From NCBI GenBank assembly GCA_034520945.1, contig JAXHNB010000005.1, forward strand, positions 480,001 through 544,000: a DNA stretch of 64,000 nucleotides, in the 5' to 3' direction. The notes below the pieces were generated by a model. The model had not been told where the DNA came from. It made no database searches and worked only from the letters and a program-made list of their open reading frames with translations. This DNA comes from Trueperaceae bacterium (GTDB taxonomy: Bacteria > Deinococcota > Deinococci > Deinococcales > Trueperaceae). Every line of letters begins with the position of its first letter. Position 1 is the stretch's first letter. Shown piece after piece: positions 45,694-52,254 of this stretch. A program made the translations under genes and the position numbers.

Positions 45694-47886
45694 TCAGGCG
45701 GGCCTGGGGGCGGTGCGCGGCTGGCGTTGGCGGCTCTTGAACCACACCACCAGCGGCGACACGATGAACACGCTGGAGTACGTCCCTACGGCGATGCCGA
45801 TCAGCAGGGTGAGGCTGAAGTCGCGCAGCACGCTGCCGCCGAACAGCAGCAGCGACAGCACCGGCAGCAGGGTGGTGGCGCTGGTCATCACCGTGCGGGA
45901 CAGCGTCTGGTTGACGGACAGGTCGACGATCTCGTCGTAGCTGCGGTCGCGGGTGCGGCGCAGGTTCTCGCGGATGCGGTCCGCGATGATGATGGAGTCG
46001 TTCAGCGAGTAGCCCACCACGAACAACAGCGCCGCCAGCACCGGAATGCTGAACTGGGCGTTCACCAGGTCGATCACGCCCAGGGTGATGCCGACGTCGT
46101 GCACCGCGGCCAGCACCGCCGCGATGGCCACGATCCAGGTCGGCCAGAAGCGCGACGTGACGTACAGCAGGATCAGCATCAGGGCCATCCCGACGGCGTA
46201 CATGGCGCCGCGCCGCAGGTCGGACCCGACGGCCGGCCCGACGAAGTCGGCCTGCAACACGCGCGCGTTCAGCGACTCGGCCAGGGCGTTGGGGAACTCG
46301 CTGGCGACCGCTTCGTCCTGGGTGAGCCCCACCCGGACGCTGACCAGGTTCTCGCCGATGGTGCCGTCCTGCACCTCGACCACGGTGGCGCCCTCGCCGG
46401 ACACGCCGGTGAAGTCCAGCTGGTTGATGGCTCGGCGCACGTCCGCGATGGGGAGGGCCTCCTCGCCCTGCAGCAGCACCGAGGTGCCGCCGGTGAAGTC
46501 GGTCGACATCCGCAGGCCGGTCATGGCGACGCTGCCGATGGCGACCAACGCCAGCAGGGCCGAGATCGACATCACGATCGGCGCCTTCCGCACGAAGCGG
46601 TAGCGAATGCCGCGAAGGTAGAAGCCGCCGGGCATGCGGGGCCGCTTGAAGCGAAGGCTGGCGACGTCCAACATCCAGGGCACCACCACGGTGTTCACGA
46701 ACACGGCGGCGACGATGCCGATGGCCAGCGTGATGGCGAAGCCCCGTACCGGCCCGGTGGTGTACTGGTACAGCGCGGCGGTGGCCAGCAGCGTGGTGGC
46801 GTTGGCGTCGATGATGGCGGAGAGCGAGTTGCCGAAGCCGTTCTTCATGGCCAAGCGGAGGCCACGGCCGTCGCGGAGCTCCTCCTTGATCCGCTCGAAG
46901 CTGATCACGTTGCCGTCGACGGCGGCGCCGATGGTGAGCACCAGGCCCGCCAGGCCCGGCAGCGTCAACGCCGCGCCCAGGCCGGCCAGCACGCCGAACA
47001 CGAACAGCATCGCCAGCCCCAGCCCCAGCGTGAGCACCAGGCCGAACAGCGGACCGTAGTAGGCGATGATCGCGATGATCACCGCGGCCGCGCCGATGAA
47101 GGCGGCGGTGCGTCCGGCCGCGACGGAGTCCTGCCCCAGCGTGGGGCCGATGGCGCGGACCTCCTGCACCTGCAGGTTGATCGGCAGGCTGCCGCTCCGC
47201 AGCACCAGCGCGATGTCGGTGGCCTCCTCCAGGTCCTGGATGCCGGTGATCTGGCCCTGATCGCTGATGCGGGACTGCAGGGTGGGGGCGGTGATGATGT
47301 TGTCGTCCAGCACCACCGCCATGCGGCGCCCGGTGTTGGTGCCGGTGAAGTCGCCGAAGTCGCCGGTGTACTCGCGCTTGATGGTGAAGAACACCGCGGG
47401 GCCGGTGGACGCCCCCGCCACCTGCTGGAAGTCGGCGCGGGCGGTCTGGATGATCTCCCCGGTGAAGGTGGTCTCCTCCAGGTCGTCCAGCGTCAGCTGC
47501 TCCGAGGGCACGCTGTTGGCCTCGGGTCGTACCAGTGCGAACTCGAGCACCGCCTGCTGGCCGATCAGGTCGAGGGCGCGGTCCTGATCCTCGGAGGTGA
47601 GGCCGGGAAGCTCGACGACGACGCGGTTGCCGCCGCTGGTCTGAATCAGCGGCTCGGCGACGCCGAACTCGTTGACGCGGTTCTCGACGATGTTGCGGGC
47701 GGTCTGCATGTCCTCTTGCGCTGGGTTTGGCTCCTCGGCCTGCAGGACGACGCGGAGGCCGCCCTGCAGGTCGAGGCCCAGCTTCAGGCTGTCGGTTCCG
47801 GTCTGGTTCCACGGCTGCCACAGGTAGGCGATCGACGCCAGGACGGCGGCCAGGACGAGGGCGGCTGTGAAGGTTCGCTGGTTCAT
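45694..47886 (-). CDS. secDF: Fused protein translocase subunit SecDF
   Basis: LGLDLQGG, IGPTLG, AVDGNVISFERIKEE, DFTGG and GYSLNDSIIIADRIRE motifs. Confidence 0.97.
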   Translation of the reverse strand: MNQRTFTAALVLAAVLASIAYLWQPWNQTGTDSLKLGLDLQGGLRVVLQAEEPNPAQEDMQTARNIVENRVNEFGVAEPLIQTSGGNRVVVELPGLTSEDQDRALDLIGQQAVLEFALVRPEANSVPSEQLTLDDLEETTFTGEIIQTARADFQQVAGASTGPAVFFTIKREYTGDFGDFTGTNTGRRMAVVLDDNIITAPTLQSRISDQGQITGIQDLEEATDIALVLRSGSLPINLQVQEVRAIGPTLGQDSVAAGRTAAFIGAAAVIIAIIAYYGPLFGLVLTLGLGLAMLFVFGVLAGLGAALTLPGLAGLVLTIGAAVDGNVISFERIKEELRDGRGLRLAMKNGFGNSLSAIIDANATTLLATAALYQYTTGPVRGFAITLAIGIVAAVFVNTVVVPWMLDVASLRFKRPRMPGGFYLRGIRYRFVRKAPIVMSISALLALVAIGSVAMTGLRMSTDFTGGTSVLLQGEEALPIADVRRAINQLDFTGVSGEGATVVEVQDGTIGENLVSVRVGLTQDEAVASEFPNALAESLNARVLQADFVGPAVGSDLRRGAMYAVGMALMLILLYVTSRFWPTWIVAIAAVLAAVHDVGITLGVIDLVNAQFSIPVLAALLFVVGYSLNDSIIIADRIRENLRRTRDRSYDEIVDLSVNQTLSRTVMTSATTLLPVLSLLLFGGSVLRDFSLTLLIGIAVGTYSSVFIVSPLVVWFKSRQRQPRTAPRPA

Positions 47887-47941
47887 GATCCTCCTGGGAG
47901 GGGTGCGAGGGCGTTGGGGTCGGGCAAACGAGGCCGTCGCC

Positions 47942-48310
47942 TCATCCGCCCTCCAGGTTGCGCCTCGAGAACCAGCGTTGGGCGCGGGTGCGCCGGACCG
48001 GCGTGCGCGCGGCGGCCCGGGGCAGCGCCGGCAGCGTGTGGCGGCTGGCCCCGCGCCACGGCCGCACGCCCGGCGTGGCGGCGTCCCCGGTGAGGAGGGC
48101 GGGGACGTACGCGACCGACAGGAGCAGCGGCGGCGGGGGGGCGGCCAGCCCCGCGTGCAGCGGTACCGGCGCGCCGGCGGGCCCTTCGCCGACCGGCGGG
48201 GCGGGGTGCGCCGCGGCGCCCGCCGGCCACGCGCCCGCGCCCGCCGCCAGCAGGGCGGCGATCAGCGTGGTGCGCAGCCGCGCGGCGGCCGTGGGCGCCC
48301 CGCGTCGCAT
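47942..48310 (-). CDS. 122-aa signal-peptide uORF directly upstream of secDF (candidate arrest/monitor peptide)
   Basis: TGATG coupling to the infB stop, Sec-type N-terminus, Pro/Ala-rich body, C-terminus WFSRRNLEGG; ends 55 nt before the secDF ATG. Confidence 0.6.
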   Translation of the reverse strand: MRRGAPTAAARLRTTLIAALLAAGAGAWPAGAAAHPAPPVGEGPAGAPVPLHAGLAAPPPPLLLSVAYVPALLTGDAATPGVRPWRGASRHTLPALPRAAARTPVRRTRAQRWFSRRNLEGG

Positions 48311-50145
48311 CAGGTGCCCGGCACCTCGACCATCTCGTACGCCTCGATGATGTCGCCCTCCTGGACGTTGTCGTAGTTGGACAGGTTGATGCCGCACTCG
48401 AACCCTTGCGTGACCTCGCGAACGTCGTCCTTGAAGCGCTTGAGGCCGGCGATGGAGCCCTTGTACGCCTCCTTGCCGCCCCGGTTGAGGCGCGCCTTGG
48501 CGCCACGCCGGATCACGCCGTGGGTGACGTACGACCCCGCGATGTTGCCGCTGCGCGGGACGCGGATCACCATGCGCACCTCGGCGTGGCCGAGCACCTT
48601 CTCCTCGAACTCCGGCTCGATCTGACCGCGGATCATGCGCTGCACGTCCTCGATCAGTTGGTAGATGATCTTGTACGTCTTGAGCGGGATGCCTTGGCGC
48701 TCGGCCGACTTCTTGACGCTGCCGGGCGGATTGACGCCGAAGGCGATCACCTGCGCGTCGCCGGTGGAGGCCAACAGCAGGTCCGACTCCGTCGGCGCGC
48801 CGACGTCGGCCAGCATGATGTCGATGTCCACGTCGTCGGTCGCTTCGGACTCGCGTTGCAGCACGCCCTTGATCGCTTCGAGGGTGCCCTGCGTGTCCGC
48901 TCGGACGATCAGGTTGATGGTGGCGACGTTGGGCTTGCCGAACAGGTCGGCCAGGGTGAGGTCCTTGCGTCCGATGTCGCCCCGCCCGGACGCCTTGCGC
49001 GCCTCTAGGCGCTCGCCCGCGATCCGCTTGGCGGTGGCCTCGTTCGGGGCGGCCACGACCGTGTCGCCGGCGCCGGGTTGCTCGCTGAAGCCGAGGATCT
49101 GGGCGGGCGTGCTGGGGCCCGCCTCCGAGATCTGCGAGCCGGTGTGATCGCTAAGGCGGCGGATCTTGGCCCACGCCTCGCCCGACACGACGTAATCGGC
49201 GACCCGCAGCGTGCCCTGCTGCACCAGGACGGTGGTGAGCACCCCGGCGCGCTTGTCGAGGAGCGACTCGACCACGACGCCTTCGAACGGTGCCTCGGGG
49301 TCGCCCCGCAGCTCCTGCACCTCGGCGACCAGCCCGATCATCTCGAGCAGGTCGGGGATGCCTTCGCCGGTGGTGGCGCTGATCGGCACCACGATGGTGT
49401 CCCCGCCGAAGTCCTCGGGCACCAGCTCGACCTGCATCAGGTCGCGCTTCACCTTCTCGGGGTCGGCGCGGGGCAGGTCGATCTTGTTGATCGCCACCAG
49501 GATCGGCACGCCGGCCGCCTTGGCGTGCGCGATCGCTTCGCGGGTCTGCGGCATGATGCTGTCGTCGGCCGCGACCACGATGACGGCGATGTCGGTGGCG
49601 TTGGCGCCGCGTTGACGGATGGCGGTGAACGCCTCGTGCCCGGGCGTGTCCAGGAAGGTGATCGGTCCACCGGCGGTCTCGGCCACGTAGGCGCCGATGT
49701 GCTGCGTGATGCCGCCCGCCTCGCCGGCCGCCACCCGTGTCTTACGGATGTAGTCCAGCAGCGAGGTCTTGCCGTGATCCACGTGCCCCATCACCGTCAC
49801 CACCGGGGCGCGGAGCGGGGCGCGTTCGGCCTCGGCGGTCGCCGTGGCGCTGGGCCCGGCGGCGGGCTGCTCCTTGACGGCCGTGCCGCCACGGGGGGCG
49901 TCGCCGCCGGACGCCGCGGTCGGTGCGGGCTCGGGCGCGGCCGGCGCGGGGACGTCGCCGCCCCCGCCGGCGCCCTCATCGCTGCTCTCGTCCACCAGCT
50001 GACGCACCGTCTCCGCCGTGTCGGCGTCCAGGGTGCTGGAGTGCGACTTGTACGCCACCCCCATGTCGTCGAGGATGGCGAGAAGCCTCTTGCTCTCGAT
50101 CCCCAGGTCCTTCGCGAGTTGGTAGATCCGTACCTTTTCGGACAT
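48310..50145 (-). CDS. infB: Translation initiation factor IF-2
   Basis: [30 protein letters not shown] and GFECGI motifs. Confidence 0.98.
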   Translation of the reverse strand: MSEKVRIYQLAKDLGIESKRLLAILDDMGVAYKSHSSTLDADTAETVRQLVDESSDEGAGGGGDVPAPAAPEPAPTAASGGDAPRGGTAVKEQPAAGPSATATAEAERAPLRAPVVTVMGHVDHGKTSLLDYIRKTRVAAGEAGGITQHIGAYVAETAGGPITFLDTPGHEAFTAIRQRGANATDIAVIVVAADDSIMPQTREAIAHAKAAGVPILVAINKIDLPRADPEKVKRDLMQVELVPEDFGGDTIVVPISATTGEGIPDLLEMIGLVAEVQELRGDPEAPFEGVVVESLLDKRAGVLTTVLVQQGTLRVADYVVSGEAWAKIRRLSDHTGSQISEAGPSTPAQILGFSEQPGAGDTVVAAPNEATAKRIAGERLEARKASGRGDIGRKDLTLADLFGKPNVATINLIVRADTQGTLEAIKGVLQRESEATDDVDIDIMLADVGAPTESDLLLASTGDAQVIAFGVNPPGSVKKSAERQGIPLKTYKIIYQLIEDVQRMIRGQIEPEFEEKVLGHAEVRMVIRVPRSGNIAGSYVTHGVIRRGAKARLNRGGKEAYKGSIAGLKRFKDDVREVTQGFECGINLSNYDNVQEGDIIEAYEMVEVPGT

Positions 50146-50424
50146 TCATCCCTCCCGTGCGCTGCGTCGTGTCTCGAGGTGACGATCGAGCTGTTCGGCC
50201 ACCGCGCCCGCCTGCCCGCGGAATGCGCGGCGAAGATCCTTTTCCTTGGCCACGGCCGCGCAGTCGGGGCACACCCATGCCCCGCGCCCGCCGGCGGTGC
50301 CGTCCGGATCGAGGCGCCAGGTCCCGTCCTCCGCCCGCGCGATCCGCAGCAGGGCGGCCTTCGGGGCGGAGGTGCGGCAGCGTACGCAGCGCCGCAGGGG
50401 AACGTGGCGGCTCGTCGGCACCAT
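50146..50424 (-). CDS. ylxR: YlxR/DUF448 RNA-binding protein
   Basis: PLRRCVRCR and GRGAWVC motifs; lies between nusA and infB. Confidence 0.9.
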   Translation of the reverse strand: MVPTSRHVPLRRCVRCRTSAPKAALLRIARAEDGTWRLDPDGTAGGRGAWVCPDCAAVAKEKDLRRAFRGQAGAVAEQLDRHLETRRSAREG

Positions 50425-50426
50425 GG

Positions 50427-51785
<1,359 letters not shown>

Positions 51786-51810
51786 GCGTTCACTCCTATT
51801 CGGTTGTGGG

Positions 51811-52254
51811 TCAGCGCGGCTCGCTGGGCCATTCCGCCAACCGTGCGGTGTCGATGTCGTGCAGCGTGAGTTCCAGGCGTTCTCCGTCCACCTCGAACAC
51901 GACGTTCGTGTCACTGGCCTCCCGAATCACGCCGGTGAAGCTGCGTTCGCCGCTTCGGACCTTGGCGGCCAGGTCGTGGAAGCGGGCGAAGTGCCGGGCG
52001 CGGAACAGCGGCCGCTTGGCGCCGGGCGATTCGACCTCCAGCTGGTAGCGGCCCTGGAACGGGTCCAGGCGGTCCAACTCCAAGCCGAACGCTTCGCTGG
52101 CGGTCTGCACGTCGCCCACGGAGACGGTGCCTTCGTCCCAGCGATCGATGCGGACCAGCACCCGCGGGGTGCGCGTCTTGTGCGACACGTTCACCTCGAG
52201 CACTTCGAACCCGAGGGGCGTGAGCACCTCGGCTGCGGCCTGCGCCAGATCCAT
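51811..52254 (-). CDS. rimP: Ribosome maturation factor RimP
   Basis: YQLEVESPGAKRPL motif; first gene of the nusA operon; SD GGGAGG. Confidence 0.92.
   Translation of the reverse strand: MDLAQAAAEVLTPLGFEVLEVNVSHKTRTPRVLVRIDRWDEGTVSVGDVQTASEAFGLELDRLDPFQGRYQLEVESPGAKRPLFRARHFARFHDLAAKVRSGERSFTGVIREASDTNVVFEVDGERLELTLHDIDTARLAEWPSEPR

Follow-up and report, generated by a model that had tools for sequence, protein, structure and literature searches.

Ribosome stalling with the stop codon in the A site has been demonstrated for uDF_NAP-stop, uA_NSP-stop and uDF_DGMK-stop, as described in PMC10987492. For LudP, the preprint account (bioRxiv 10.64898/2026.10.26.761930) describes an acidic-glycine element near the catalytic centre that blocks accommodation of both tRNA and release factor, reports that the arrest persists in weaker form when the A-site codon is a stop, and traces the peptide to the untested candidate clusters of Fujiwara 2024. 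Here we analysed a 64,000-nucleotide (nt) stretch of a Trueperaceae bacterium genome (phylum Deinococcota; GenBank assembly GCA_034520945.1, contig JAXHNB010000005.1, positions 480,001 to 544,000 of the forward strand), referred to below as the window, in which a small open reading frame (ORF) of 122 amino acids plus a TGA stop (47942..48310, stop at 47942–47944; all features of the locus lie on the minus strand) precedes secDF. From the sequences of this ORF and its relatives, we put at roughly 60% the probability that it encodes a translated, membrane-targeted secDF leader peptide acting as a secretion-monitoring ribosome arrest peptide, which would represent a new family, '...RLQL[ED]GG-stop'.

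Sakiyama 2021 (PMC7897499) and Fujiwara 2024 (PMC10987492) describe four in silico criteria for Sec/YidC monitoring substrates, and the small ORF and its family display all four. The ORF has no assigned function, lies 55 nt upstream of secDF and belongs to no Pfam or NCBIfam family; its N-terminus carries a signal or transmembrane segment, visible both in hydrophobic windows and as a predicted AlphaFold2 helix at residues 8–27; its C-terminal sequence is conserved among homologues; and the fourth property, 76–101 residues, holds in nearly all members. From the hydrophobic window to the C-terminus we counted 81–101 amino acids in 34 of the 35 genomes of a first set, and 76–101 in a second set where the N-terminal segment is the top-scoring window. 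Four loci have a second hydrophobic stretch between the mid and C-terminal motifs (L061, L062, L081 and L083, in genomes G335, G336, G196 and G219).

The product of the small ORF starts MRRGAPTAAARLRTT-LIAALLAAGAGAW, continues into a Pro/Ala-rich stretch and reaches the TGA as ...RTRAQRWFSRRNLEGG. Residues 1–33 (48212..48310) combine an Arg-rich n-region, with R2, R3, R11 and R13 upstream of the hydrophobic stretch, and a hydrophobic segment whose best 15-residue Kyte–Doolittle window covers residues 16–30 (mean 1.68), together a putative signal sequence or membrane anchor. Residues 53–65 (AGLAAPPPPLLLS; 48116..48154) are the local copy of a mid motif, G-[MLWF]-x-A-P...L-[ED], and residues 111–122 (QRWFSRRNLEGG; 47945..47980) are the conserved C-terminal motif, overlapping a predicted helix at 109–119 and flush with the stop. 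AlphaFold2 run with an alignment gave a predicted template modelling score (pTM) of 0.28, with helices only at 8–27, 30–34, 61–64 and 109–119 and no strands; the first of these helices has a predicted local distance difference test score (pLDDT) of about 80–94, and the ESM Atlas model has a pLDDT of 0.49. None of 69 family members matched Pfam, and NCBIfam returned two weak stray matches. The product is predicted to be a non-globular peptide. ThiS, MoaD and TtuB are cytoplasmic beta-grasp proteins with a Gly-Gly terminus; we rejected a ubiquitin-like or sulfur-carrier protein with C-terminal Gly-Gly here, given the lack of strands in the model, the pTM of 0.28 and the N-terminal membrane segment.

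The family extends across the phylum. A secDF gene was identified in 117 of the 128 genomes of the family and in 219 of the 220 high-quality ones of the order. We assembled a synteny set of 86 genomes, taking the 1.5 kb upstream of secDF for 80 and adding 6 collected earlier. A script scored ORFs of at least 50–60 codons with a stop upstream of secDF and an ending of [ED]G[GC] (in three cases, ...[QR]L). Such an ORF precedes secDF in 70 of the 86 Deinococcota genomes: 48 of 62 Trueperaceae, 9 of 11 genomes in the Deinococcus-containing family, all 8 in the Thermus-containing family and all 5 in a fourth family. These family labels follow the source names of close relatives, 'Thermus sp.' and four Deinococcus species, whose versions are annotated as hypothetical protein. 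The script overlooked two more Trueperaceae cases, in G266 (...RWQL-stop) and in G353, where a profile match lies 636 nt upstream. Another ORF upstream of secDF, at L109 (G283), has a hydrophobic N-terminus and the ending ...RRAARFGGG; it may be a divergent relative of the family and was not counted by the script.

Homology searches agree with this distribution. Searching with the single peptide returned matches in the same genus only, all of them between infB and secDF and ending RxQRW[FY][AS]RRNL[ED]GG-stop; both this search and a four-sequence profile were too weak to reach distant relatives, for which synteny was required. A profile built from 69 synteny-derived peptides (A2) has exactly one match per genome in at least 200 of 364 phylum genomes, comprising, by family, at least 82 of 127, at least 36 of 125, at least 20 of 23, at least 57 of 68, at least 4 of 19 and 0 of 1, plus the window's own genome. 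This tally is an undercount, as 12 candidates were scored per genome and G009, which has a clear ORF, was missed; it includes the unpublished genome G337. Against 1.84 billion representative proteins, the profile produced 102 matches at E ≤0.001, all of them 68–148 amino acids long, and in 102 of 102 the match to the final profile positions (110; once 109) ends no more than one residue from the end of the protein. The other 101 representatives end in LEGG (67), LDGG (20) or another x[ED]G[GCA] (14), with [ED]GG in 99. Of the 29,345 stop-to-stop frames in this genome with 60 or more amino acids, just 2 end in L[ED]GG, one being the small ORF, so that its ending is far beyond chance. We found no second copy upstream of other sec genes, and the sole other L[ED]GG frame in the genome appears unrelated: it lies on G000:C6, ends at about 675395 on the plus strand as ...GNVPLEGG, is Arg-rich and lacks the family features, and its ending is probably due to chance.

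Conservation is concentrated at the very end of the peptide. The consensus drawn from 162 non-redundant C-termini reads L(-12)-x-x-[LFY](-9)-G-R-[LRW]-Q-L-[ED]-G-G-stop, with Gly at -1 in 98% and at -2 in 100%, Glu (65%) or Asp (35%) at -3, Leu at -4 in 85%, Gln at -5 in 61% and Arg at -7 in 71%; by about -16, conservation has dropped to the background level. Every listed member also has a basic, hydrophobic N-terminus, often ending LPL, and the mid motif is common to the family about 60–70 residues from the C-terminus. An earlier note on this DNA, made from its letters, had expected that Deinococcota ORFs upstream of secDF would share a signal-like N-terminus and a C-terminal motif, as the 70 of 86 genomes bear out. 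Its proposed motif, RxxLEGG, was right in being conserved and C-terminal, and its form has to be redrawn as R-[LRW]-Q-L-[ED]-G-G following L-x-x-[LFY]-G. The note's further expectation that only the signal peptide and the C-terminus would be conserved failed, the mid motif being under constraint as well.

Codon usage within the motif indicates what is being conserved. The Leu at -4 is encoded by CTC (33), CTG (10), CTT (6) or TTG (5), position -3 by GAG (25), GAC (25), GAA (16) or GAT (2), and both terminal Gly positions use all four Gly codons; this synonymous variation makes a purely RNA-level element unlikely. The ratio of non-synonymous to synonymous substitution (dN/dS) is 0.18–0.60 in 13 close pairs, a fourteenth pair being saturated. 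As read from these sequences, selection acts at the level of the peptide.

The position of the motif, always flush with the stop, is consistent with arrest at termination. About a dozen conserved residues, roughly the length from catalytic centre to constriction, placed directly at the stop give the shape expected of an arrest sequence. Peptide release after a C-terminal Gly is intrinsically slow, which would agree with such an arrest. The choice of stop codon was also examined. In the Trueperaceae, the stop is TGA in 38 of 48 cases, in line with the genome background (840 of 1009). The Thermus-type peptides (19 genomes, L111–L129, from a genus that includes 'Thermus sp.') end [LH]LYLLY[GR][RK]LQ[LM][ED]GG and use TAG 12 times, TAA 7 times and TGA never, against a background of 139 TAG, 95 TGA and 65 TAA (TGA 32%, or 95 of the 299 coding-like frame ends counted over 400 kb of one Thermus genome). 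We rejected stop-codon bias as a sign of release-factor specificity: the Trueperaceae follow their background, and TGA avoidance among the Thermus species, which are related, is suggestive only.

Gene order ties the ORF to secDF. On the minus strand, the window reads nusA (50427..51914), ylxR (50146..50424), infB (IF-2; 48310..50145), the small ORF and secDF (45694..47886), the last a fused SecD–SecF of 730 amino acids. These neighbours are assigned by Pfam, infB through GTP_EFTU, IF-2 and IF2_N and secDF through SecD_SecF_C, SecDF_P1_head, SecD_1st and Sec_GG. The infB stop (48312–48310) and the small-ORF ATG (48310–48308) overlap by one base (TGATG), and the 55-nt spacer that follows the ORF (47887..47941; C 0.47, G 0.25) contains the secDF Shine–Dalgarno (SD) sequence AGGAGG at 47895–47890, ahead of the secDF ATG at 47886. 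GC content at the three codon positions is 0.83/0.74/0.95 in the small ORF and 0.66/0.45/0.96 in secDF, the third-position signal agreeing with coding in the small-ORF frame. No sigma-70-like promoter consensus or intrinsic terminator was found in 47700–48500, and a look for RNA data sets over 47600–48600 turned up none. Most of what the earlier note had described of the locus is borne out here: a 122-amino-acid ORF joined to the infB stop through TGATG, with agreeing coordinates and translation; a basic n-region (R2/R3/R11/R13), a hydrophobic N-terminus (the Kyte–Doolittle window at 16–30) and a Pro/Ala stretch; 55 nt between the WFSRRNLEGG-stop end (TGA at 47944–47942) and secDF; and a secDF tied to the nusA–infB operon, through the nusA–ylxR–infB row and the lack of a consensus promoter or terminator in the same interval.

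Across the synteny set, the distance from ORF to secDF is 53–341 nt in 69 of 70 loci, and the remaining one (G219) was scored at 15 nt from a doubtful automatic secDF start. In most Trueperaceae, in the Thermus type and in the fourth family, the order is infB, ORF, secDF, and the ORF start overlaps or soon follows the infB stop, with overlap in 12 Trueperaceae genomes. At Deinococcus-type loci, the ORF stands 53–98 nt from secDF, and infB is 810–850 nt off or absent within 1.5 kb. This arrangement indicates that the ORF belongs functionally to secDF. In genera that lack the ORF (g6, g9, g14, g13, g15 and g32), infB abuts or overlaps secDF or a short spacer is left, and absence combined with a tight infB–secDF junction reads as secondary loss. 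Four Trueperaceae loci without the ORF (L037, L046, L052 and L053, in G356, G018, G015 and G297) have an infB–secDF gap of -4 or 2 nt; with the infB stop at or over the secDF start, secDF is directly coupled to infB in those Trueperaceae.

We propose that the last 9–12 residues act in the upper exit tunnel and the peptidyl-transferase centre, where they would keep the ribosome on the stop codon or beside it, Gly-Gly-tRNA occupying the P site and peptide release being slow or blocked. The N-terminal signal or anchor, about 80–90 residues away, would meanwhile engage the Sec translocon, and the pull exerted on the chain by active export machinery, possibly by SecDF on the mid motif, would end the pause. 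Poor export would then mean a long pause and raised secDF expression. Least certain is the output step, which may consist of remodelling the structured, C-rich spacer or of shielding the transcript from Rho. In its most specific form, which we offer tentatively and would not yet favour, the peptide would be a native arrest peptide of Deinococcota, Thermus included, that holds termination by acidic-Gly-Gly in place of proline and is relieved by a SecDF-dependent pull on a conserved motif newly arrived across the membrane; the peptide would then sense SecDF activity directly, as a part of the nusA–infB operon.

RNA folding bears on the output step, within the limits of thermodynamic prediction for GC-rich RNA, which does not suffice to decide the output mechanism. 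The predicted 121-nt fold (-57.6 kcal/mol, z = -4.8 against 200 shuffles) contains a 13-bp hairpin (GGGCGGAUGAGGC / GCCUCGUUUGCCC, loop GACG; 47922..47951) that takes in both final Gly codons and the stop, together with a 4-bp CCUC/GAGG hairpin on the SD. It also contains a 9-bp perfect helix between the Gln-Arg-Trp-Phe codons (CGCUGGUUC, 47969–47977) and secDF codons 2–4 (GAACCAGCG, 47876–47884), which we rejected as a conserved element since the same codons pair with other partners in relatives. The complementarity that the earlier note had seen between the last codons and the spacer is present (CCUGGAGGG with CCCUCCCAGG, nine pairs and one bulged C). The SD-masking hairpin built on it, however, folds at -47.4 versus -57.6 kcal/mol, 10.2 worse than the minimum free energy, and the local 13-bp stop-codon hairpin is favoured. 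For the note's idea that a stalled ribosome opens the SD, the folds show no consistent effect: with the stall site blocked at this locus, the SD mini-hairpin remains.

Several observations weigh against a secretion-monitoring arrest peptide. Over 34 loci, the SD zone is unpaired with a mean probability of 0.485 in the free RNA and 0.525 with the stall site blocked; over 67 loci, SD pairing is 0.571, against 0.574 in composition-matched spacer shuffles; and RNAalifold on 10 Thermus loci gave only 2 pairs with compensatory change. The mid motif and a few Pro/Arg columns are conserved, as would also be expected of a protein with a job of its own. The ORF is missing from whole genera and is to that extent dispensable. 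The motif itself varies at its end: the ORFs of G012 (L064), G266 (L065) and G265 (L107) finish ...LQL, ...WQL or ...WRL-stop without EGG, one genome (G200, L079) ends in EGC and one representative in DGA, so that the Gly-Gly-stop end is no absolute requirement. If the pause normally fell at the Leu, with the Glu/Asp codon in the A site, the G012, G265 and G266 endings would be stop-codon versions of the same arrest; the invariant Gly-Gly would then need a separate explanation.

The rival that survives best holds that the peptide is a small single-pass membrane protein with its own job, perhaps a SecDF accessory replacing YajC, in which RLQL[ED]GG is a binding or processing site. The place immediately before secDF is also the one that yajC has in E. 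coli. We did not detect YajC (PF02699) in this 97%-complete genome or in the Thermus thermophilus and Deinococcus radiodurans controls, and found it in 7 other controls; this leaves room for a structural role and counts against the arrest peptide. Conservation of the mid motif and further columns outside the tunnel-length segment, a dN/dS of 0.18–0.6 that marks a product under selection, and a transmembrane helix predicted at high confidence all fit such a protein. What it explains poorly is the character of the rest of the peptide: none of the 69 members resembles YajC or another Pfam family, a globular fold is lacking (pTM 0.28), freely varying low-complexity sequence makes up most of the chain, and the strongest conservation falls on the last nine residues, always at the stop. 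Repeated loss of the ORF, in many genera with a tight infB–secDF junction, is also awkward for it. Identity with YajC itself was rejected, with no PF02699 match at E ≤0.1 for the small ORF and 0 of 69 among the members. On balance, we judge a membrane protein with its own job unlikely.

A second rival keeps the pause at the stop and gives it a different output, in the manner of TnaC. TnaC is a tryptophan sensor in which the gene behind the leader ORF is expressed only if a ribosome is held at the stop of that ORF; it lacks an export signal, has Pro as its last residue and works by way of Rho. Here, the paused ribosome would cover a site in the C-rich spacer at which Rho could load, letting transcription proceed into secDF. 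Spacers in the family are indeed C-rich and G-poor (mean C 0.354 versus G 0.254), with C exceeding G in 56 of 70 loci; Rho is encoded in this genome; 47700–48500 yielded neither an intrinsic terminator nor a promoter consensus; and SD masking is unsupported in the folds. Many of the spacers, however, measure just 53–75 nt and are strongly structured, a poor substrate for Rho loading, and pairing to the G-rich codons of the motif and to the SD would itself make them C-rich. The proposal moreover depends on the same postulated stalling step as the secretion-monitoring arrest peptide, and we consider it improbable.

Least of all do we credit conservation at the RNA level, in which the G-rich end (GAG GGN GGN) is SD-like or structural and the ORF merely passes ribosomes from infB to secDF: GGNGG always stands at the end, the last codons pair with Arg-Leu codons in a hairpin in Thermus, the 13-bp hairpin crosses the stop in the window and 12 Trueperaceae genomes have an ORF start overlapping the infB stop, yet third positions vary freely while the residues stay constant, the amino acids themselves are conserved at -3 to -9 and at -12, the motif is invariably in frame and last, and motif–downstream pairing barely exceeds shuffles (0.53 versus 0.48; 42 of 67 loci exceed the shuffle mean and 15 of 67 fall in the top tenth).

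A secretion-monitoring arrest peptide of this kind would matter in several respects. Few arrest-motif chemistries are known, and most of the export-linked ones are proline-based; a phylum-wide Gly-Gly-stop motif would, if it acts as proposed, be an added way to block peptide release. Thermus ribosomes are a standard for crystallography and cryo-electron microscopy, offering an obvious structural route. The family also gives a testable function and a name to a protein so far 'hypothetical' in Thermus and Deinococcus, and suggests a means by which Deinococcota tune their single SecDF. If it were instead a stable SecDF partner, the peptide would fill the YajC gap in the phylum. We found no description in print of an L-[ED]-G-G-stop secDF leader, which may sit uncommented among the untested candidate clusters of Fujiwara 2024; neither 'Deinococ' nor 'Thermus' occurs in the main text of PMC10987492, of PMC7897499 or of the LudP preprint.

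Several systems already described resemble the small ORF in general plan. YajC is a short protein with one membrane span whose gene, in many bacteria, immediately precedes secD/secF; it has a folded soluble domain, whereas the small ORF is predicted to be non-globular and lacks a sequence match. SecM, ApcA, ApdA/ApdP and RQH (RAPP-like), as described in PMC7897499, PMC10987492 and PMC10951233, have the same layout and presumed logic; they need a motif of the R-A-G-P, R-A-P-G or R-A-P-P-like type that places proline at the catalytic centre, whereas the 162 C-termini have no conserved Pro from -1 to -12. Membership of the RAPP-like/RQH, SecM, ApcA, ApdA or ApdP groups was rejected, with R-A-G-P, R-A-P-G, R-A-P-P, R-G-P-P and [HQ]-A-P-P all absent from the last 12 residues, QRWFSRRNLEGG; the earlier note had likewise observed that RAGP/RAPP-type motifs are lacking. 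In Vibrio, VemP upstream of secDF2 (PMC5449182, PMC7793623) is an exported peptide that monitors export and controls secDF, as proposed for the small ORF; as described there, it differs in arresting elongation at an internal site and controlling a second secDF copy, and it bears no sequence likeness to the small ORF.

LudP too lies upstream of secDF and has an acidic residue followed by Gly near its arrest point (DGEK|E); as described in its preprint, it uses another register and other residues, is confined to Bacillota and arrests elongation. Membership among uDF_NAP-stop, uA_NSP-stop and uDF_DGMK-stop was rejected, none of the 101 listed endings matching their motifs: as described in PMC10987492, theirs end N-A-P, N-S-P and D-G-M-K, in Bacteroidota and Bacillota, whereas the candidate Deinococcota family ends L-[ED]-G-G. 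In organization, however, the small ORF resembles these three stop-codon arrest peptides: like them, it is short, precedes a sec gene (secDF or secA in their case), carries a signal or membrane segment at its N-terminus and closes with a brief conserved motif directly at the stop.

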